This document shows, piece by piece, positions 25,605 to 33,620 of a DNA stretch of 56,783 nucleotides; position 1 is the first letter of the stretch; each line of letters opens with the position of its first letter. The position numbers and the translations under genes are program-made. Location: positions 1 through 56,783 of IMG/VR virus record IMGVR_UViG_3300036833_000338; one strand, 5' to 3'. The notes under the pieces are model-generated. The model was not told where the DNA came from. It saw only the letters and a list, made by a program, of their open reading frames with translations, and searched no databases. The DNA comes from a virus. Taxonomy: Duplodnaviria; Caudoviricetes.

Positions 25605-25778
25605 TTATGGAGCAGGCTTCGGGCTCTCCGGCAGCAACCCCTCGCGCTGCATCCGCGCCTTCACCTTCTCGGCGAAGGCGCGAGCCTGTTCAGGCGTCAT
25701 CACGCCCTCGGACGGGTCATCCGGGTCATCGATCCACGGGGCCCACTGCCCTGGCGATGGCTTCTCCTGGGATTCCAT
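25605..25778 (-). CDS. Hypothetical small protein
   Basis: MESQEKPSP... with GAGG RBS, overlapping the portal 3' end. Confidence 0.45.
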   Translation of the reverse strand: MESQEKPSPGQWAPWIDDPDDPSEGVMTPEQARAFAEKVKARMQREGLLPESPKPAP

Positions 25779-28700
25779 TTTTCCTCGCCTCTGCTTGTAG
25801 GGCAGTGGAATAATCGACGTTGGTGCCTTCGGTATCCCGGCCACCCAGTTTCGCATACAGCTCCTTCTCAGGATACCACCAGATCGCCTGCAGATCGGCA
25901 TTGCTGAGATGCGTGCCCTCGGCGGACAGCATTTGCCTGGCATGATCGACGACATCCCGCATCCAAATCCGGTCGCCGCCCGATTTTGGCGTCTCATTGA
26001 TGCCGTCCATGGCGTGGATCATCCGCTCGGCCGACAGTGTCAATTCGGACTTGAGGCGGGTCTTTGCGCGGTATTCAGCGGCATGAGCGGCGTAATCGCG
26101 TTCATGCAAGGCAACGATCGCGTCGGCCTGCGACTTTAGCTCCTCCAGGGTTGGCGGCACCGGCCCGCCGCCTGCGGCGAGGGCTCGCTCAAATCTGCCT
26201 TGGGTCTTGGCAAAGGACGCGGGATCGAGCTGTCCCTTCAGGGAGCCGGCGAGCCGTCCCCAGGCCCGCATGAACCACAGGTCCATCGTGACCGGGTTAT
26301 AATTGCCATTGAGGTTCTGGAAGAATCCACCGCCGATTTTTGGTCCGAAGATCGCCGAGCCGTAAACCGGCGTGTCGACGTTCTCGCCCTGGATCGGATG
26401 ACCATCCGCAGTCAGCTCGCCCGCCGTCCGCTCGGTATTCAGGAATTGCCGCGTTCCTTCCGGCCCCAGTGTATCCAGCAAATTGTTGTACTTTCCGAAA
26501 TTGGAGTTCATCGCGATCTTTTCTTGGGCTTCTATGTTCGTCGGAAACCGGCCGGTCTGCTTGAAGGTTCGGTACGCCTGATCGGCCAATCGCACATTCG
26601 ACGGTACCTTCTCGCCTTGGCTGGTGATCGCCAGTGCGGCGGTATACGCAGTGCGCGCGTGCGGATCGGTGGTCAATTCCGGATGCATCAAGGCAGCGAC
26701 ATCCATCGCCTCCTTGACCTTGCTGGTGTACCAATTGCCCGCGTGACCGGAGCGCGCCGCAGCGTCTTTGATCTCACTGGCAATGACGCGCGACAACAGA
26801 TGATCGGTTCGCGGAGACGGCCCTTGGATGCGACCGCCAGGGACGCCGAGGTTTCTGAGTGCGGCTGAGCCGCGCGCCATCAATTGGTCCGCGATGTCGA
26901 CCACCGTGCGCGAGCGTGGTCTTGCAGCAGGCGTATCACCGTAGAGGATGTCCCGCACCGAGAGCGCGCGTTCGCGCGGGTCGGCGCCGATCGGCGGCTC
27001 TACGCCGGTTTGCGTCCAGGTTGCTTCGCGCCAATGATCGTCAGCGTCTCGCCAGACCTCTCGGAGGTTTCGTCCACCCACCGCTCCGGAATCTTCCGTT
27101 TCGCGGATGACGGCTTCGTAGGCGCGCTGGGCGTCGGCGCGCTGCTCTTCGTCGGTTCCGGTGTCGAGCTTTGTGCCAATGAACTCTCCGTTGCCATGGG
27201 TGACCTTGATCGGCACGTCAGCCGCGACCCGCTCGATCGCCGCGTCGGTTTCGGGATCGCTCGAGTAAATATGAACCTTGGCGCCGCCGGGTGTCGGTTC
27301 CAATGTGTGAAAGGCCAGGCCGCCTTGCAATAGCTGATCGTGGATCTGCGACAGATCGCCCGGCAGCTCAAAGCTCACCATGCTCTCGGGCCCCTTGGGG
27401 TCCGGGTTGAACACCAGCACCGCCTTCTGGTTGGAGACGGCGCCCTTCATCGCGGCTGCCGCGCGGACCATCGCCGGATCGCCGCGCAGCGCGACCATCA
27501 ACGAATTCTCGGCACCGTCCGACCAGGCGCCGATGACGTCGGCTCGATGCGTCTCGCGCAGCCCGAGACCATCGTCGATGATGCGGCTGACCTGGCCCAA
27601 AGCCTTTTGGCGGACGCCACCCAGCTCGGCCTGCGCTTGGGGGAAGGTCAGGTCACGAATATTCGGGGAAGCAAAGGTTTCGGCCGTTCGAACTCTCGGC
27701 GCGGCGCGTTTAACAGGTTCCGCCGCGGCAGGCTCAGGCTTGGCAGGAGTCTCCTTCTTCTCGGGCTCGGAGGGCTCCTCGGCCTCCGGCTCTTCCTTCT
27801 CCGCAGGCTCTTCCTTCTTGGCGCCGGCCTCGCCTTCACCCTTCCGCGCGAATTGCCCGTGCTTGCGGGTGACGTTCTCTTCCTTAAACTCGGCATCCTC
27901 GGCGAACCAATCGGCCAGCCACTTCGCGTCACCGGTCAGTGGGGCTTTTTTTTTTGCTTCCGCTTCCGGGTCGTAGTTGGCGATCGCCTCGGCCAGATCT
28001 TCGAGGAACGCCTGCAGCCGCGCGATATCGTCCGGTGTCAGGTCATCGTTATCCGGCGCCGCGTCACCACCGCCTGCCGCTGCCCTGGCCATTCCGATGC
28101 CGAGTTTGGCGCCATGTTCGATGATGACGTGCTGGACGATTTCCTGCGCGAGCATCACGGCCGCATGCGCCACCGTCCCGGTCGGATCACCGGTCAGCAG
28201 CATCGACCCGCCCGACATCGCCATGCGCAGGCCGAAGGAGCGCAGACCTTTCATCTGCTCCGGGGTCGGCCGGTTGCCGGTCGCCATCGCCTTGAGCCCA
28301 CCGGCCGCATGCATCGCGTGCGTCTTCTCTTCGTGCCAGATGTGTTTCGGCAGATCCTTGGCCATGCCGGCGATCCTGCTCGCCCAGCTCTTGCGGGCCT
28401 CGCCGCCCGGTTTCAGCGCTTCGTGGATGGCCTGAGCCTCGGGCCGCCCGACCTCGCCGATGCGATGGACCACCGCCGCGGCGGCCCGCGCCCCAACGCC
28501 GGGCGTCGCGCTCGGTATATGCTGGTGAACGCCGCCCCCGCCACCGCCCGAGGTAAACCGGCCGTGCGCCTCGCGGCGGTGCTTCGACTCTTCCCATTCG
28601 GCCTGGTCGAAAGGCGCCCGGCTACGATCGCGCTCAGCCTGCAGCCCGTAGATGTACTGAATGATGTTGGACGGTGCGCCACGGGCGATCTCGAGCAAGT

Positions 28701-31137
28701 CGGGATCGAGCGGAACCGGCGCCTCCTGATCGAATGCGATGTCGCCCGCTCGATGCGCCGCCAGGCTCTGCCGGCCGGAGGCCGGGTCGCGGGTCGCGCC
28801 AAACGGCGACGTCACCGATGTGATGGCACCCTGGTGCGGGCCACCGCCCGGCGGCCGCGGCGGCCCGCCCAATGCGGGTTGCCCGGCACCAGCCATCGGC
28901 GGTGCCGGCGGCTCCGCGGGCAGCTCCTCCGGGTCGAGGTCGAGCGCGACATACGGGCTCTCCGGATCGGTCGCCAGGATGCGGCGCACCTCTTGATTCG
29001 TCACCGCGCCCATCTCTTCATACTTCGAATGAATGTCGGCCTTGGTCGCCTGCACCGAGGCTTTGCCGGCCTCGTCCAATTGCCACAGGCTCTTGAAATC
29101 AAACGTAATATCCGGGTCGACCCGGCCCAGGCGCGAGAGCTGGATAAAATCGATGACGCGGGTCAGCGGCTCGCGGAATAACAACTCTTGATAGGCGGCT
29201 ATCCAATCGTAAAAACTTCTGATCTCACCTTCACTACTTGCGTTTAGTCCTGACGGTGTGAGACCCGTATATTTTATTAGCGGTAGTCCACTAATTGAGC
29301 AGTTATGGACGAGTATACCGTTGGCGTACAACTCAGGGAGGTACCCATCGGCAACCTGAAGATTATAGACCGGCTCGCTGGCGTACCTTCCAAGCCGCGG
29401 TGTTGCAACGTTGGCTGCAATAGAGCGCGCGCTCGGGCCAGACGGTCGAATATTCAGCGCCGCAGCTCGCGCAAATCTTGGTAACAGCTGGTCCAAACGT
29501 AGTGAAACCGAGTCGGCCCTCGTTGACATGTTGGCGAATATGGTCGCCGTGCGGGATGCACTCGAAATTGCCGAGCTGATTATGCTCTGTATCTTCGTCG
29601 ATATGATGGACATCGTAGCCGTCAGGGATCGGCCCGTGATGCACAATCCAGATCTGTCGGTGCAGGAGTCCGCCTGCTTTGACGTTACGGTAATAACCCG
29701 ACTTAGTCTTGCCCCACCAATGGCCGCGCCAGAGGACCGGTGGCCCGTACTTGTTGGCCACGTTGGGGCCTCTAATTCGAGGCTGGCCTTTGCGCCGCTG
29801 CACAGCAGGAGATCCCCAGGCCGCACATTCTTCGCACTGACAAACGCGTCGATCGTAGGTAAATAAATCGGGTGGCATGGTGTGACCCAGACTGCTGAGT
29901 GCTCGCTCTTGATAAGGAGCAGTTCAGCAGAATAGCCGGTGCAACCGACCCAGGTCAACGGGGCGAGGCCTTTGCGGGTCATCACCTGATCGGTCAATTC
30001 GAGGCGATCAATCCGAACCTGTCCACGTTGCGTCTCGACCAGCGTGTTGCCAGAAACGCAAATATGTTCCTGCGACTGCGCCTGCAAGGCATCGAGACCG
30101 GCCAGCGGTGTCGAGATATTCTGAAACTCTTCAGTCTCCTTATTGAGGATCAGCAGCGCCCGGTTGTCGCGAAAGAAGTTGTACAGATCGGCCCGGTTCT
30201 GGACGATCTGCTGCCCGCCATTGTTGAGCATGGCGGTCAGATCGGTCAGCATCACGGCGGTCGAGAACGAACGGATCAGATCGGCGACCGAGTCACGCGT
30301 CTGCGTCCACTTGTCGATATAGGTCTTGGCCATCTGCGACAATGGCAGACCGCCAAACATGTACGCCGGCTTGAGCAGGTCCGGCACCTCGCGGCCGACC
30401 AGTGTCAGTAGCCGCGTGGCGTGGATCATCTTGCCCATGACAAACCACGACTGCGGCTTGTACCAGTCGGGGCGCAGTGGATCGGACGCGTTGTAGTCGA
30501 TTGGGTACGTCCATACCGCTTCCACTGTACGCAGCGCCTTCAAGCCGCCTTTGCGGATTTTAGCCTGCGAGATCAGATCCCGGCCATGGCCGATCGGAGT
30601 CTTCAGCTCGTCGGGGGTGTCGGTCGTGCCGAGGTCGATGTAGAGATGCGCCCGGCCAAAGAAGCCATCCTGCTCGGCCAGCCGGCGAAACGCGTCCTGC
30701 ACGCCCAGCCGTTTGATCTCGTCCTCGAGCGCGTTGATTTCGAGGCTCTTGTCCTCGTCGCTGGAGCTTTTGAGCTCGATCCATTCGCGCGTCATCTCGG
30801 TGGCGATGACTTCGCTGAGCCGCCGGTACTCGCCGCGCTGCGCCAACTCGGCCAGCAGCGGATAGCCGAGAAAACTCATGCCGTCGGCGTAATACGCCGC
30901 GAGCAATTGGTCGGCGGCCCAATTGGTCGAATTGCCGACAGCGCTGTCCATCGCCATCGTCGGCGCACCCTCAGGCACCACCCCTGGCATCGGCGCTGAG
31001 GGGGCGAACACCGGCTGCTGCGGCTTGCCGCGCGGGATCTGGCCGCGTTCTCCAGCTTTTTTCAGCGCTGCGGCGAAATCGCCTACCGGGGCGTCAGCAT
31101 CGGTCGGCGGCTGCGCCAGATTGACGACGTCGGCCAT
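25726..31137 (-). CDS. Portal protein (DUF1073-like) with intein and a long C-terminal extension of roughly 1000 aa
   Basis: FLGYPLLAELAQRGEYR...YNASDPLRPDWYKP...LLKPAYMFGG...TPSGLNASSEGEIRSFYDWI; follows terL. Confidence 0.9.
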   Translation of the reverse strand: MADVVNLAQPPTDADAPVGDFAAALKKAGERGQIPRGKPQQPVFAPSAPMPGVVPEGAPTMAMDSAVGNSTNWAADQLLAAYYADGMSFLGYPLLAELAQRGEYRRLSEVIATEMTREWIELKSSSDEDKSLEINALEDEIKRLGVQDAFRRLAEQDGFFGRAHLYIDLGTTDTPDELKTPIGHGRDLISQAKIRKGGLKALRTVEAVWTYPIDYNASDPLRPDWYKPQSWFVMGKMIHATRLLTLVGREVPDLLKPAYMFGGLPLSQMAKTYIDKWTQTRDSVADLIRSFSTAVMLTDLTAMLNNGGQQIVQNRADLYNFFRDNRALLILNKETEEFQNISTPLAGLDALQAQSQEHICVSGNTLVETQRGQVRIDRLELTDQVMTRKGLAPLTWVGCTGYSAELLLIKSEHSAVWVTPCHPIYLPTIDAFVSAKNVRPGDLLLCSGAKASLELEAPTWPTSTGHRSSGAAIGGARLSRVITVTSKQADSCTDRSGLCITGRSLTATMSIISTKIQSIISSAISSASRTATIFANMSTRADSVSLRLDQLLPRFARAAALNIRPSGPSARSIAANVATPRLGRYASEPVYNLQVADGYLPELYANGILVHNCSISGLPLIKYTGLTPSGLNASSEGEIRSFYDWIAAYQELLFREPLTRVIDFIQLSRLGRVDPDITFDFKSLWQLDEAGKASVQATKADIHSKYEEMGAVTNQEVRRILATDPESPYVALDLDPEELPAEPPAPPMAGAGQPALGGPPRPPGGGPHQGAITSVTSPFGATRDPASGRQSLAAHRAGDIAFDQEAPVPLDPDLLEIARGAPSNIIQYIYGLQAERDRSRAPFDQAEWEESKHRREAHGRFTSGGGGGGVHQHIPSATPGVGARAAAAVVHRIGEVGRPEAQAIHEALKPGGEARKSWASRIAGMAKDLPKHIWHEEKTHAMHAAGGLKAMATGNRPTPEQMKGLRSFGLRMAMSGGSMLLTGDPTGTVAHAAVMLAQEIVQHVIIEHGAKLGIGMARAAAGGGDAAPDNDDLTPDDIARLQAFLEDLAEAIANYDPEAEAKKKAPLTGDAKWLADWFAEDAEFKEENVTRKHGQFARKGEGEAGAKKEEPAEKEEPEAEEPSEPEKKETPAKPEPAAAEPVKRAAPRVRTAETFASPNIRDLTFPQAQAELGGVRQKALGQVSRIIDDGLGLRETHRADVIGAWSDGAENSLMVALRGDPAMVRAAAAMKGAVSNQKAVLVFNPDPKGPESMVSFELPGDLSQIHDQLLQGGLAFHTLEPTPGGAKVHIYSSDPETDAAIERVAADVPIKVTHGNGEFIGTKLDTGTDEEQRADAQRAYEAVIRETEDSGAVGGRNLREVWRDADDHWREATWTQTGVEPPIGADPRERALSVRDILYGDTPAARPRSRTVVDIADQLMARGSAALRNLGVPGGRIQGPSPRTDHLLSRVIASEIKDAAARSGHAGNWYTSKVKEAMDVAALMHPELTTDPHARTAYTAALAITSQGEKVPSNVRLADQAYRTFKQTGRFPTNIEAQEKIAMNSNFGKYNNLLDTLGPEGTRQFLNTERTAGELTADGHPIQGENVDTPVYGSAIFGPKIGGGFFQNLNGNYNPVTMDLWFMRAWGRLAGSLKGQLDPASFAKTQGRFERALAAGGGPVPPTLEELKSQADAIVALHERDYAAHAAEYRAKTRLKSELTLSAERMIHAMDGINETPKSGGDRIWMRDVVDHARQMLSAEGTHLSNADLQAIWWYPEKELYAKLGGRDTEGTNVDYSTALQAEARKNGIPGEAIARAVGPVDR
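29302..30060 (-). mobile_element. Intein in portal (253 aa)
   Basis: EHI/CVSGNTLVETQRG (block A), VTPCHP (block B), VYNLQV (block F), YANGILVHN/C (block G). Confidence 0.92.
29363..29761 (-). CDS. HNH endonuclease with Zn finger, nested out of frame in the portal intein
   Basis: LLHRQIWIVHHGPIPDGYDVHHIDEDTEHNQLGNFECIPHGDH; CASCG...YCSQRC; GAGG-N7-GTG start (ORF open to 29878). Confidence 0.88.
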   Translation of the reverse strand: MANKYGPPVLWRGHWWGKTKSGYYRNVKAGGLLHRQIWIVHHGPIPDGYDVHHIDEDTEHNQLGNFECIPHGDHIRQHVNEGRLGFTTFGPAVTKICASCGAEYSTVWPERALYCSQRCNTAAWKVRQRAGL

Positions 31138-31141
31138 GAGA

Positions 31142-33346
31142 TCAGCGCCGCAGCGTGTGGACCATCGGCAGCCCGGGGCGCGGCTGCAGCATCGATTTTG
31201 TTACAATAACTGGCAGGGGACCGGGTTCGACCAGCAGGTCCGTCAATGCCCACACCAGCGCGTCGACTCTGTCCGGTGACCCGTCGCGGGCCCGGTCATA
31301 GTCGATCGTAAACGAGCATTGCTGATCTTCGAGCTGGGGAAAATTTCCCACGTGGTGGATTCTCCCCTGCTCGTAGAGGGCGCTAACCGGCTCGGCGCGG
31401 ATCGCCTTGCCGCGCGAGGCATGCACTGGCGTATAGGCGATGTCCGGGTCGACCATCCTGATCGTGTTCTCGACCATTTCGCCTCCGTTGTTGATCTCGG
31501 CGACGATGCGGTCAGCCTTGCGCTGCGGGTGCTTGTATTGGGCTATTGCTGCCCGCGCCCACTCGGTCGGCTGGTAGTGCCCTGAAACGTCTGCGAGCAC
31601 ATAGCCATGCCCCGCCCAGTCGCAGGCGGCGACGACGATGCCGGTTTCATCCGCCTCCTCACCGCTGGTTGCGGCCGGATCGACGGCACAGACAATCCGC
31701 TTGAAGGCAGGCAGCGGTTGCCCGTAAGGCCAGCGGTCGCGATCGATCCCCTCGCGTGTCCACAGCGCCCCTGGCACGTCCTCGAGGAGCTCGCCGCCGA
31801 TCTCCTGGCGACCGAGGCGGGTGCCCTCGTAGCGGGCGACGATGCGGTCGAAGAAGGTCGGCGCGAGGTTGGCGCGGTTCTCGTAGCTGGAGCCGCGGGT
31901 GATGACGGTCATCGGATCGGCGAGCAGCTCGCGCAGAAGCTTCGTCGGACGCGGCGTCGCGGTCACCATGACTCGTGGATCGGGTCCCAGCCGCAACCCA
32001 AACATCAGCATGTCCCACGCCTCGGGGTATTTCCAGACCGACAACTCGTCGCAGTTGTGGACTAAAACTCCATTGGCGAAATATTCAGGGGAGCGCTCGA
32101 CAGTGAGATTAAAGACGCGAGCCTCGCCTTCTGGCTCCCAAGTTGACACAACGCTGACTACAGAAATTTCCTTGCCTCGACCTGAACGATCTCCCGCAAT
32201 ATTCACAGGCTCGGTCTGTCGTGCGGGCTTCCTCGGCTCGCTTTTGTTGACATCGCAAACATACCGGATCCCGGGCGTCTTTGCGCTGCTTTCGAATGAC
32301 TTCGACCCCACAGTCGCCGCAGCATAAGCGAATTTCTGGTTTGAGAGACCAATCGACAGGAGCAATTGGCTTTTCAGCGACGTGAAGCTTTCGATGATCA
32401 CTCTTCGATAAAAGCTCCAAGTCATCTGGGTTGGTCGTAGCCAGATCTTCGACCCGATGATGCACATCAAATCCCGGAGGAATTTCTCCGTGGGCCGCTC
32501 TCCATACGGCCCGATGTAAGCGGTCTCTGTCGACTCGCCCGAGTGACCTCGTGCCGCGATATTCGAAATACCCCGGTTGTCCGCGAGCCCGGTATCGGTG
32601 CCACCGCCGTCCACCCCACTCGACGCACTCGTTACACATGCCGCCCCTCGCGACAGGTCGGAAAGCCTCATCCAACCATGCGATGATAGTACGGGGTGCT
32701 CGGCCGTTCCAGTCAGATGCCTGCCATCAGCAAAGCGAACGGTCCCCACTTTTTCTGCTCGCGAAGCGACTCGGATCACGGCGTGTAGCCCGCTTCTTGT
32801 TACCACGAGATCGCCTGCTTTGATCGCTTCGATCGGGATCTCGCCGTGATCCGTGAGGATCGTCGTGCCGGCGACAAAACACCACGATCCATCGTGCTGC
32901 GGCCCGCGCAGGCGATCGGGCTCCTCAGCGCTATAGAGCGTGGCGACGGCGCCGTTGGGCCAGGTCAGGCGGCGCTTCGAGGGCTCATAGAGCGGCCGCT
33001 CGGAATTCGGCGAGACGGCCAGGATGCCGGATTGCCCCTCGACGATGACGTCACGGATATCGGCTGCGGTCGGGGCGACCAGCGCGAGCCGACGGCGCCC
33101 TCGCTTGACTTGCTCGCGCGTCCATTCGGCCCCTGAGCGCGTCTTTCCGTACCCGCGACCGGCAAGCAATAGCCACACCCGCCAATCGCCCGGCGGTGCC
33201 AGCTGCGAGGGTCGCGCCTGCCGATGCCAATCAAAATGGACAGCATCAGTGTTTCGTGTCTCCTGTAGTATTTCCGCTGCGTCTATCGCTTCCAGCAATG
33301 CCTGCAGCGAGCTTCGCGTCGGCGATCCACTGTGCAAGCTCAGCAT
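31142..33346 (-). CDS. terL: Terminase large subunit with intein
   Basis: Walker A AGRGYGKT, Walker B W/CDE split by the intein, VTATP, nuclease VDPA...DETGI...PDRVDALVWA. Confidence 0.95.
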   Translation of the reverse strand: MLSLHSGSPTRSSLQALLEAIDAAEILQETRNTDAVHFDWHRQARPSQLAPPGDWRVWLLLAGRGYGKTRSGAEWTREQVKRGRRRLALVAPTAADIRDVIVEGQSGILAVSPNSERPLYEPSKRRLTWPNGAVATLYSAEEPDRLRGPQHDGSWCFVAGTTILTDHGEIPIEAIKAGDLVVTRSGLHAVIRVASRAEKVGTVRFADGRHLTGTAEHPVLSSHGWMRLSDLSRGAACVTSASSGVDGGGTDTGLADNRGISNIAARGHSGESTETAYIGPYGERPTEKFLRDLMCIIGSKIWLRPTQMTWSFYRRVIIESFTSLKSQLLLSIGLSNQKFAYAAATVGSKSFESSAKTPGIRYVCDVNKSEPRKPARQTEPVNIAGDRSGRGKEISVVSVVSTWEPEGEARVFNLTVERSPEYFANGVLVHNCDELSVWKYPEAWDMLMFGLRLGPDPRVMVTATPRPTKLLRELLADPMTVITRGSSYENRANLAPTFFDRIVARYEGTRLGRQEIGGELLEDVPGALWTREGIDRDRWPYGQPLPAFKRIVCAVDPAATSGEEADETGIVVAACDWAGHGYVLADVSGHYQPTEWARAAIAQYKHPQRKADRIVAEINNGGEMVENTIRMVDPDIAYTPVHASRGKAIRAEPVSALYEQGRIHHVGNFPQLEDQQCSFTIDYDRARDGSPDRVDALVWALTDLLVEPGPLPVIVTKSMLQPRPGLPMVHTLRR
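32054..32881 (-). mobile_element. Intein in TerL (276 aa), inserted at Walker B
   Basis: GSW/CFVAGTTILTDHG, GTAEHP, VFNLTV, YFANGVLVHN/CDE. Confidence 0.93.
32109..32639 (-). CDS. HNH endonuclease with Zn fingers, nested out of frame in the TerL intein
   Basis: RLHRAVWRAAHGEIPPGFDVHHRVEDLATTNPDDLELLSKSDH; CGDCG, CLRC, CEYCG...FCSQRC; GAGGGG RBS before MCNEC (ORF open to 32675). Confidence 0.88.
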   Translation of the reverse strand: MCNECVEWGGRRWHRYRARGQPGYFEYRGTRSLGRVDRDRLHRAVWRAAHGEIPPGFDVHHRVEDLATTNPDDLELLSKSDHRKLHVAEKPIAPVDWSLKPEIRLCCGDCGVEVIRKQRKDARDPVCLRCQQKRAEEARTTDRACEYCGRSFRSRQGNFCSQRCVNLGARRRGSRL

Positions 33347-33620
33347 CGGTCATTTCGCTCGGTTTGCGGACGGTTACGGTGGCGGCGGCGAGCTTGGGAT
33401 GCAGGTAGGGCGCGGCAAGAGCGGCGCTCTTCTCGGCTGCGTCATGCTCGCCCGCATCGCGATGGCGGCGCATGTTTTCGAGGATCACCTCGAGCGGCGT
33501 GACGCTATGGGCGGCCGCGGCTTCGAGGATCGCGCGGGTGCTTTTGGCGATGGCTCCCTTCTTCTTGCCGGGACCACCTTTAGGCCTGCCCGCTCCTGGC
33601 CTAGCCCCACCGCGTGGCAT
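33246..33620 (-). CDS. terS: Terminase small subunit
   Basis: RGGARPGAGRPKG...TPLEVIL...AAPYLHPKL; directly upstream of terL. Confidence 0.8.
   Translation of the reverse strand: MPRGGARPGAGRPKGGPGKKKGAIAKSTRAILEAAAAHSVTPLEVILENMRRHRDAGEHDAAEKSAALAAPYLHPKLAAATVTVRKPSEMTDAELAQWIADAKLAAGIAGSDRRSGNTTGDTKH

Follow-up and report, generated by a model that had tools for sequence, protein, structure and literature searches.

The portal gene of an uncultured phage contains an apparent intein, across the middle of which runs a second open reading frame (ORF) for an HNH nuclease, in a different frame. This arrangement raises the question of whether intein and nuclease form a single mobile element, and of how the same bases serve both. 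We analysed the IMG/VR virus record that holds the gene (positions 1 to 56,783, here called the window). Our best explanation, to which we assign a probability of roughly 80%, is a composite selfish element in which a mini-intein and a separately translated I-HmuI-like HNH homing nuclease move together. The portal gene and its intein comprise the following features.

25726..31137, minus strand: portal ORF, 1803 aa; PF06381 (Phage_portal_3) split by the intein, plus a long C-terminal extension
30061..31137, minus strand: portal N-extein, aa 1-359, ending ...QSQEHI (read from the sequence and from alignment to intein-less portals)
29302..30060, minus strand: class-1 portal intein, 253 aa, CVSGN...LVHN (intein blocks, Hint_2, AF2 model)
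30060-30058, minus strand: intein Cys1 (sequence)
29883-29881 and 29874-29872, minus strand: block B Thr60 and His63 (sequence)
29304-29302, minus strand: terminal Asn of intein blocks F/G, VYNLQV...YANGILVHN (sequence)
29299..29301, minus strand: +1 Cys codon, opening the C-extein CSISGLPLIKY... (sequence and alignment)

The Phage_portal_3 profile matched the portal ORF (E 4.2e-73) as two segments that part at profile position 264; the first segment stops at residue 359, at the start of the intein. A sequence-only reading of this DNA had placed the junction at EHI/CS, and alignment to intein-less portals showed this to be exact: at the junction 6/6 aligned intein-less portals read QEH[IM]/[CAS]S.. 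(the slash marks the insertion point). That reading had also named portal homologs routinely carrying the segment as evidence against an intein, and the 253 aa are precisely missing from each of the 11 related portals (50-82% identity) that extend across the site. Hint_2 matched the portal intein with an E of 8.3e-5, which is under the gathering score, while its match to a second intein in the terminase gene (described below) is over it. Cys1, Thr60, His63 and Asn253 are invariant in 32/32 aligned inteins, and both window inteins end in the class-1 signature LVHN/C. The AF2 model of the portal intein has pLDDT values of at least 90 at residues 1-90 and ∼220-253, and its Foldseek matches to solved intein splicing domains have a probability of 1.00 (e.g. 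6riz, TMt 0.85; 1am2, E 4.9e-5). Judged by its sequence blocks, the Hint_2 match and the predicted fold, the portal insertion is a genuine class-1 intein, which would be expected to splice. Between the two halves block-mean pLDDT is 46 to 80; this host-frame linker is low-confidence filler, constrained only to remain stop-free. The C-terminal 1084 aa of the portal ORF had 0 matches in a PHROG search and no likeness to the ORF that follows the portal of the closest relative.

The nested ORF occupies the centre of the intein as follows.

29363..29878, minus strand: nested HNH ORF, 171 aa, ATG to TAA, frame +2 relative to the intein (ORF list, HNH_3, homologs)
29365-29363, minus strand: its TAA stop, built from the block F Tyr-Asn codons (sequence)
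29540..29665, minus strand: HNH (His-Me finger) core, residues 72-113, LHR...VHHID.D..HN...N...H (HNH_3, conservation, I-HmuI 1u3e)
29405..29473, minus strand: C-terminal CxxC...CxxxC zinc-ribbon-like module, C136, C139, C154 and C158 (alignment, AF2)

By these coordinates the intact HNH ORF lies wholly within the intein, as had been claimed, and the motifs first noticed in it (LHRQIW, HHGPIPDGYDVHHIDED and CASCG...YCSQRC) are all present. Pfam HNH_3 matched residues 72-113 over the gathering score (E 2.6e-10). Across 57 HNH sequences H73, H91, H92 and H113 never vary, and conservation of N100, N104 and H117 reaches 90% or more. The AF2 model of the nested protein has a pLDDT of 86.5 overall and of 93-97 in the zinc-ribbon-like module, the fold likeness of which to the YacG zinc finger is weak and not significant (E about 1). 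When the HNH family profile was compared with the PDB the sole sequence match was I-HmuI (1u3e, E 1.1e-3), which was also the top match in a fold search with the model, with a low TM (0.32, E 2e-3). The protein library held 4067 HNH relatives at E<=1e-3; among the 150 matches listed most are 100-330 aa long and two exceed 500 aa. A word-index protein search with the HNH sequence gave 2 relatives, and a single-protein scan of viral contigs with the portal HNH gave no match.

The same arrangement occurs a second time in the window, in the gene for the terminase large subunit; this copy does not appear in the sequence-only reading.

31142..33346, minus strand: terminase large subunit ORF, 734 aa, holding the second intein (Terminase_6N, Terminase_6C, Hint_2, Intein_splicing)
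32054..32881, minus strand: terminase intein, 276 aa, CFVAGTT...NGVLVHN, inserted before CDELS in the Walker B region (Pfam, alignment, bridging contigs)
32109..32639, minus strand: second nested HNH ORF, 176 aa from ATG 32639 (HNH_3 E 5.6e-9, over the gathering score)

The terminase HNH ORF, the open frame of which also permits a TTG start at 32675, has the identical +2 frame relation to its intein, is 32% identical to the portal HNH, and matches the same PHROG (15471). The terminase unit is a diverged paralog of the portal unit of intein and HNH. Both window HNH ORFs are intact, keep all of their catalytic and zinc residues, and are predicted to encode active nucleases.

Where translation of the portal HNH starts is less obvious, as there are two further candidates besides the ATG at 29878.

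29801..29817, minus strand: alternative internal start, GGGGA (29817-29813), 9 nt, then GTG 29803-29801 (sequence)
29759..29772, minus strand: start proposed by the sequence-only reading, GAGG (29772-29769)-N7-GTG 29761, giving 132 aa that lack the conserved Cys cluster (sequence)

The GAGG-N7-GTG arrangement is present as described, although as the main start it is probably wrong, since homologs favour ATG 29878. The 132-aa product would drop the N-terminal M..DL..RVCxCxEC segment, in which C15 and C18 are invariant in 13/13 aligned HNH sequences and R11, V12, C13, C15, E17 and C18 do not vary among the 7 closest; the top library matches to the portal HNH align from residue 2-3. ATG 29878 is therefore probably the start, on the evidence of homology, although intein block B, read in the other frame, could account for part of the conservation seen at the N-terminus. 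No Shine-Dalgarno-like motif was found within 16 nt of ATG 29878, whereas the two candidates that have one (GTG 29803 and GTG 29761) both lose the conserved Cys cluster. The ATG is formed from the Pro61-Cys62 codons of intein block B, and the GGGGA ahead of GTG 29803 consists of the Gly-Asp codons of the intein PGD motif. In the terminase copy GAGGGG (32649-32644) lies 4 nt ahead of ATG 32639. Among HNH relatives that start 8 nt past the motif Gly codon this codon is GGA or GGG in 9/10, compared with 2/9 when the start is farther off and 360/745 for Gly codons elsewhere. Upstream of the portal HNH a promoter search gave one promoter-like site (29958-29929), which we dismissed because shuffled sequences give an equal count (mean 1.0).

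To ask how easily two overlapping frames arise by chance, we ran 20,000 synonymous permutations that preserved the HNH protein and its codon set. For the portal copy 9.7% of these left the intein frame stop-free and 0.005% the third sense frame; for the terminase copy the figures are 0.11% and 0%. GC content by codon position tracks the HNH frame. Differences between relatives at HNH codon positions 1/2/3 number 12/2/40 and 25/14/60, and those between the window and one relative, L015, number 55/50/93, i.e. they are concentrated at third positions. Over the same bases the HNH frame conserves more of its amino acids than the host frame does (identity 0.94 versus 0.76, 0.83 versus 0.61 and 0.49 versus 0.29). 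The codon-position and identity comparisons indicate that purifying selection acts on the HNH frame, and together with the frame comparison they bear out the earlier suggestion that the nuclease frame dictates the sequence of the linker.

We looked for the layout elsewhere in the best 80 of 140 IMG/VR loci with HNH relatives, a sample taken with one peptide pattern from a narrower alignment. The HNH is nested in a long ORF with the same frame relation in 57/80 of these, which is not an estimate of prevalence because the sample is the best 80 of 140, uses a single pattern and includes several near-duplicates (there are 49 unique host ORFs). In the nested loci frame HNH+1 stays open over the whole HNH, as part of a span of 240-1092 aa; it is closed in the 21 loci where the HNH does not lie inside a longer open frame. 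Of 44 host ORFs scanned, 39 match Intein_splicing, 41 have Cys1 and the terminal Asn, 33 fall by profile into terminase N-terminal families (26 Terminase_6N, 7 Terminase_3), and 1 is a portal. Their inteins occupy several different insertion sites, the portal among them; the share of 1/44 for portals agrees with the prior expectation that portal insertions are less common, and portal inteins have already been listed (Kelley 2016, Gosselin 2025). The single match in a named phage is an HNH concealed under a 'terminase large subunit' CDS in GenBank. An out-of-frame HNH within an intein looks common among uncultured phages. A broader and more tentative proposal, for which we would put the chance a little short of even, is that the overprinted unit is the normal state of a large, mostly unannotated HNH_3 clade whose units hop between packaging-gene sites, with intein codons doubling as expression signals. 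Intein and nuclease would have evolved jointly, the ATG coming from block B, the Shine-Dalgarno sequence from the Gly-Asp codons of PGD, and the HNH stop from Tyr-Asn or Tyr-Asp codons in block F. Unrelated phages would exchange units among packaging-gene sites, and two per phage would be possible.

The distribution of the units bears on their mobility. The closest relative, L003, has a portal 82% identical to that of the window and without the intein, and its 463-aa terminase is also intein-free; the portal intein is shared by the window and L015, the exteins of which are 53% identical. As judged from these sequences, the distribution of the portal intein is discordant with relatedness. At the terminase site, contigs joining 32051 to 32892 were found in two soil metagenome runs, X1 (depth 26) and X2 (depth 8.3). 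These bridging contigs omit 840 nt and insert 12 other letters, so that their net loss (828 nt) equals the terminase intein in length; intein-bearing contigs were found in both runs, and intein-free alleles therefore co-occur in the two soils. Contigs were accepted at 90% likeness and may stem from related phages. Among the contigs listed for X1 and X2 none bridges the portal site, and positions 29000-30028 are uncovered in X2. X1 contigs reproduce 29000-30349 and 31836-32957 with 0 differences, and X1 may be the source sample. GC content of both inteins (0.49-0.61) is below that of the flanking exteins. We also looked for a co-conversion tract at the portal site: the extein flanks match L003 at 45/60 positions on each side, as against 253/300 farther upstream and 221/300 farther downstream, which is too little to call. 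The relatives of the window's portal are proteobacterial phages.

In the composite element that we favour, the class-1 mini-intein would be made within the portal precursor and would have to excise itself to give a working portal. The HNH nuclease with its zinc-ribbon modules, encoded in the -1 (= +2) frame over the stretch where a canonical intein has its in-frame endonuclease domain, would be translated separately from an internal start. The nuclease would then cut or nick intein-less portal alleles of co-infecting relatives, and repair off the intein-bearing copy would bring intein and nuclease jointly into the new genome.

An unlikely alternative is that the HNH ORFs are dead passengers, i.e. 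that a free-standing nuclease gene invaded a mini-intein, lost its expression and now awaits decay in a vertically inherited intein. The missing Shine-Dalgarno-like motif at the homology-supported portal ATG fits this, as does one locus, L078, in which the longest HNH-frame span begins late, has no start before intein residue 157 and looks truncated. However, both window ORFs are intact with every catalytic and zinc residue present, ORFs are intact over dozens of diverged loci, the HNH frame has a third-position bias and the higher identity, and the inteins are polymorphic for presence. Slightly less probable still is domestication of the HNH for the phage, as a packaging aid acting with terminase and portal or as a weapon against competitors, rather than for its own homing. 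Both copies are in packaging genes, the relatives are overwhelmingly in terminases, and terminase-assisting HNH proteins are mentioned in section 4.2 of PMC11855218. Against this, L003 lacks both units in its portal and terminase, and the units are therefore dispensable there; in addition, the match found by fold and by sequence is a homing nuclease that carries DNA-binding modules, and the varied insertion sites, a portal included, fit site-specific invasion.

Ribosomal frameshifting could instead make the HNH as a fusion to the N-extein and the intein N-domain, given that the HNH lies in the -1 frame of its host and that phage structural genes commonly use -1 shifts. We consider this very improbable: upstream of the ATG the HNH frame is closed by a TGA, at a distance of 15 codons in the portal copy and of 29 codons in the terminase copy, no X_XXY_YYZ heptamer was found in either TGA-to-ATG interval, and the relatives possess their own start codons, often with Shine-Dalgarno-like motifs. 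As the window is a metagenomic assembly, indels introduced by assembly or sequencing might also have created the offset in a canonical intein with an in-frame HNH. This is hardly credible, as two compensating indels would be needed in each of the two inteins and again in 57 independent contigs, no stop interrupts the host frame, blocks B and F provide the HNH with a start and a stop of its own, and the X1 contigs match both regions without differences, with the proviso that X1 may be the source sample.

The composite element bears on how inteins acquire nucleases: it supports an order in which the splicing domain came first and was later invaded by a free-standing nuclease, with the overprinted unit as a stable intermediate. 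Dual coding is also seen here in a clean natural form, with Hint-block constraint and translation signals falling on the same bases. Gene callers and GenBank records mark the host gene alone, and such homing nucleases are therefore systematically missed. The nuclease and the compact mini-intein (about 100 structured residues) could serve protein engineering and genome editing.

The nearest solved structure, I-HmuI (PDB 1u3e) of a Bacillus phage group I intron, is an elongated multi-module HNH homing nuclease that nicks a single strand, and the portal HNH is probably of similar elongated, multi-module build. The portal HNH differs from it in sequence (17% identity, low TM), in its C-terminal module, which here is a zinc ribbon, and in its carrier, an intein rather than an intron. 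Out-of-frame nucleases in inteins are already known from preprints of 2025-26, in Endo VII-like and LAGLIDADG forms, from which the HNH_3 version differs, although the supplement of 10.1101/2025.01.02.630785 might list HNH_3-type cases. That preprint describes Endo VII-like nucleases with several points in common with ours: the inteins interrupt essential phage genes, terminase among them, the nuclease is read from the intein's own strand in 'frame 3', and the in-frame linker lacks recognisable structure. The preprint proposes that a free-standing nuclease gene invaded the intein. There the nuclease matches T4 endonuclease VII (1E7D) over residues 1-67, whereas here it is HNH_3/I-HmuI-like with a core at 72-117 and zinc ribbons, a portal serves as host besides the terminase, and the nested ORF overlaps blocks B and F, second ORFs in the preprint typically lying outside the splicing domain. 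The cyanobacterial dnaX intein (bioRxiv 10.64898/2026.09.14.751524) also has a +2 ORF with putative Shine-Dalgarno motifs; its nuclease is under purifying selection, and alleles with and without the intein occur in a single population, but that nuclease is a LAGLIDADG enzyme in a cellular replication gene of cyanobacteria. The 'hidden' HNH of the ShiLan domain in mycobacteriophage methylases (PMC11855218) likewise overprints, out of frame, a phage-gene insertion free of stops; its own stop codon falls right where the insertion ends, and its translation start is unsettled. That insertion is not an intein and stays in the protein, whereas here a complete splicing domain flanks it. Canonical in-frame HNH or LAGLIDADG inteins and the 'fractured genes' of split inteins (Dassa 2009, PMC2677866) also pair a homing nuclease, between blocks B and F, with a splicing domain, but in the window the nuclease is encoded in the same DNA, read a second time, and is neither a domain of the intein nor a gene set between split halves.

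The sequence-only reading that an HNH gene lies nested inside an intein of the portal protein proved real and mainly correct. Within the window, which comes from a single IMG/VR virus record of 56,783 nt, the arrangement at the portal gene is as follows:

25726-31137, minus strand: portal ORF, 1803 aa, matching Phage_portal_3 in two stretches, the first stopping at residue 359.
Cys codon 30060-30058 to Asn codon 29304-29302, minus strand: portal intein, 253 aa, followed by Cys.
29878-29363, minus strand: nested HNH ORF, 171 aa, entirely within the portal intein at an offset of +2 nt.

A Hint_2 match begins at portal residue 359, where the first Phage_portal_3 stretch stops. The intein carries Thr60 and His63 in block B, VYNLQV...YANGILVHN in block F/G and His as its penultimate residue, and an alignment of 32 related inteins shows no variation at C1, T60, H63 or N253. 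An AlphaFold2 model built from this alignment gave pLDDT means (10-residue blocks) of at least 90 at residues 1-90 and ∼220-253, and of 46 to 80 in between; it matched the solved splicing domains of gp41-1 (6riz, TMt 0.85) and GyrA (1am2, E 4.9e-5). A portal search of viral contigs gave 12 loci; in the 11 that span the intein site, the matches fall short of the query range by ∼253 aa. The proposed EHI/CS junction was borne out by alignment with intein-less portals i.e. the 253-aa block is exactly missing in 6/6 aligned relatives, with the junction QEH[IM]/[CAS]S.., and the closest portal (related locus L003, 82% identity) reads QEHI/CSISG, an unoccupied site that already has the Cys. Named portal relatives are phages of Proteobacteria, at no more than 47% identity. 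The window's portal ORF also runs ∼1084 aa past the portal domain (25726-28980, minus strand), an extension with no Pfam or PHROG match; in L003 the portal ORF is 553 aa long, and the 280-aa ORF that follows it does not resemble the extension.

The nested ORF matches HNH_3 (E 2.6e-10) and PHROG 15471. When 1.84 billion representatives were searched in full with HMMER, 4067 relatives reached E<=1e-3; among the 150 matches listed, most were 100-330 aa long and two exceeded 500 aa. Residues H73, H91, H92, H113, C136, C139 and C154 are invariant in a 57-sequence HNH alignment. The homing nuclease I-HmuI (1u3e) was the only solved structure matching the family profile (E 1.1e-3) and the top Foldseek match (E 2e-3, TM 0.32) of the AF2 model (mean pLDDT 86.5), a likeness that we take as a pointer and not as proof. 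The two reading frames share splicing-block codons: the HNH ATG is formed by the Pro61-Cys62 codons within block B, and its TAA spans the Tyr and Asn codons of block F, taking the last base of the former and the first two of the latter.

The start had originally been placed at GTG 29761, behind a GAGG-N7 spacing. This motif exists, but as a start it would cut off a conserved N-terminal segment, M..DL..RVCxCxEC, in which C15 and C18 are invariant in 13/13 aligned sequences and R11, V12, C13, C15, E17 and C18 in the seven closest. Residues 11-20 have a pLDDT of 89 (AF2), and the best HNH matches align from query residue 2-3. No ATG/GTG/TTG precedes ATG 29878 in the open HNH frame; this codon is upstream of the Cys cluster and has no SD-like motif before it. 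A third candidate, GTG 29803, lies 9 nt past GGGGA, the Gly-Asp codons of the intein PGD motif. In relatives, the Gly codon of this motif is GGA/GGG in 9/10 cases with a start 8 nt after it and in 2/9 with the start further away (360/745 among Gly codons elsewhere); these counts are suggestive only, because the sequences counted are related. On homology ATG 29878 is favoured, and the N-terminal conservation could partly be a shadow of block B in the other frame.

The adjacent terminase gene holds a second copy of the arrangement:

31142-33346, minus strand: terminase ORF, matching Terminase_6N, Terminase_6C, Hint_2 and Intein_splicing.
32881-32054, minus strand: terminase intein, 276 aa, before CDELS.

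Within this intein lies an HNH_3 ORF (E 5.6e-9), likewise at +2 nt and 32% identical to the portal HNH; GAGGGG stands 4 nt ahead of its ATG (32639). The L003 terminase (463 aa, AAW/CDEIG) has no intein.

We compared the two frames over the overlap. GC by codon position in the HNH frame (0.62/0.49/0.61) is similar to that of the host genes (0.65/0.49/0.74), and the intein frame has a shifted pattern. Nucleotide differences between related loci cluster at HNH codon position 3, with 12/2/40 at positions 1/2/3 for L058-L087, 25/14/60 for L056-L058 and 55/50/93 for the window and L015. Over the same bases, amino-acid identities in the HNH and host frames were 0.94 vs 0.76, 0.83 vs 0.61 and 0.49 vs 0.29, respectively. 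The nuclease is therefore conserved, and the host-frame linker drifts while staying open. Over 20,000 synonymous permutations of the HNH codons, 9.7% of trials for the portal copy and 0.11% for the terminase copy left the host frame without a stop, compared with at most 0.005% for the other sense frame, a disparity that may account for the near-constant relation between the HNH and host frames.

Scanning viral contigs with an HNH alignment gave 140 relatives, of which the best 80 were retained. Among these 80 loci, the HNH+1 frame was open across the HNH in 57, within stop-to-stop spans of 240-1092 aa; in 21 the HNH was not nested in any longer open frame and the +1 frame was closed, in one (L067) the other frame was open instead, and in one (L062) a portal-like ORF carried the HNH in frame at its end. 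In L067 (569-2869) the host frame is HNH+2, in an ORF matching Intein_splicing. In L062 (2-2854) the HNH_3 relative occupies residues 851-894, at the C-terminal end of a 951-aa ORF with a weak SU10_portal match and no Hint domain, and perhaps represents a fusion and not an intein. The 57 nested loci gave 49 unique host ORFs, of which 44 were scanned (L033 and four truncated copies were left out): Intein_splicing was found in 39, Terminase_6N in 26, Terminase_3 in 7 and a portal domain in one, L015. Cys1 and the terminal Asn aligned in 41/44, two of the others being misaligned and one cut by a contig end. Intein lengths were 240-369 aa, at several different insertion sites, and in 42/43 inteins the HNH stop lay 10-24 codons ahead of the intein end, in or just before block F. 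The L015 intein occupies the window's portal site (N-extein 53% and HNH 49% identical to the window). In L078 (2211-3152) no HNH start candidate precedes intein residue 157 and the longest open span is 170 aa; this HNH frame looks N-terminally truncated and the copy is perhaps decaying. In L064 (2298-3128) the tblastn match crosses a stop just upstream of the likely start.

Intein distribution is discordant with extein relatedness, since L015 (53%) has the portal intein and L003 (82%) has none. We placed contigs from two soil-metagenome runs, X1 and X2, on window 29000-33400 at a likeness threshold of 90%. Contigs in X1 (at depth 26) and in X2 (a contig of 2418 nt at depth 8.3) join 32051 to 32892, omitting 840 nt with 12 other letters between, a net loss of 828 nt, exactly the terminase intein. 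Intein-bearing contigs occur in both runs (X1, depth ∼12.5; X2, three 151-nt contigs, depth 2-2.7). Because X1 is possibly the sample from which the window came, and because the threshold was 90%, the allele lacking the intein could stem from a related phage. From the bridging letters we infer Val, not Cys, at its +1 position, in which case an incoming intein would have to bring the +1 nucleophile by co-conversion. At the portal site, no intein-skipping joint was listed among the X1 and X2 contigs. Both inteins are lower in GC (0.49-0.61) than their exteins. GC is 0.49-0.55 across the terminase intein (31975-32500) and 0.62-0.72 elsewhere, and over roughly the first 150 nt of the portal C-extein (29125-29350) it is down to 0.45-0.52. 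Likeness of the portal extein to L003 is lower downstream (221/300) than upstream (253/300) of the intein, and one possibility is that this low-GC, less L003-like stretch was co-converted from a donor of lower GC.

The best-supported reading, to which we give a probability of roughly 80%, is a mini-intein and a separately translated homing HNH moving together. Production of the HNH by -1 frameshifting from the host frame is disfavoured, as the HNH frame is closed 15 (portal) and 29 (terminase) codons upstream of the starts and no slippery heptamer was found in the intervals upstream of the two starts. An assembly artefact would hardly produce the layout twice in the window and again in 57 independent contigs, and decay of the HNH ORFs is contradicted by the selection pattern on their frame. 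Domestication of the HNH for packaging is possible, although L003 has a portal and a terminase without either unit.

Only one of 50,697 named phage records matched the HNH at E<=1e-8, and there the match falls under a 'terminase large subunit' CDS with the HNH not annotated. In Rhodobacteraceae phage LS06-2018-MD07 (OP947163.1, locus L095; 1041-3089), a 683-aa CDS of that name covers an unannotated HNH_3 relative (32.5% identity), and another, separate CDS upstream bears the same name.

Gosselin et al. (bioRxiv 10.1101/2025.01.02.630785) describe an endonuclease VII-like nuclease encoded in 'frame 3' of actinophage inteins, a layout they term previously unreported, and count the portal among the proteins known to host inteins; Phillips et al. 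(bioRxiv 10.64898/2026.09.14.751524) describe a cyanobacterial dnaX intein with a +2-frame LAGLIDADG, termed a rarity; Arsenault et al. (PMC11855218) describe a methylase insertion with an out-of-frame HNH and no intein; and Kelley et al. 2016 (PMC5050341) list 6 portal inteins. In the passages of these four papers that we consulted, no intein is described on which an HNH_3 / I-HmuI-like nuclease is overprinted, and none in which the start and stop of such a nuclease lie within blocks B and F. Worth following up are the presence of two copies in one phage, the splicing-block codons that serve both frames and how abundant the layout appears to be in uncultured phages. The portal and terminase inteins with their out-of-frame HNH are a variation on the recently described out-of-frame-nuclease inteins: the nuclease is HNH_3 / I-HmuI-like, whereas those of Gosselin et al. 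and Phillips et al. are endonuclease VII-like and LAGLIDADG, respectively, and it sits in an intein, unlike the HNH of Arsenault et al.
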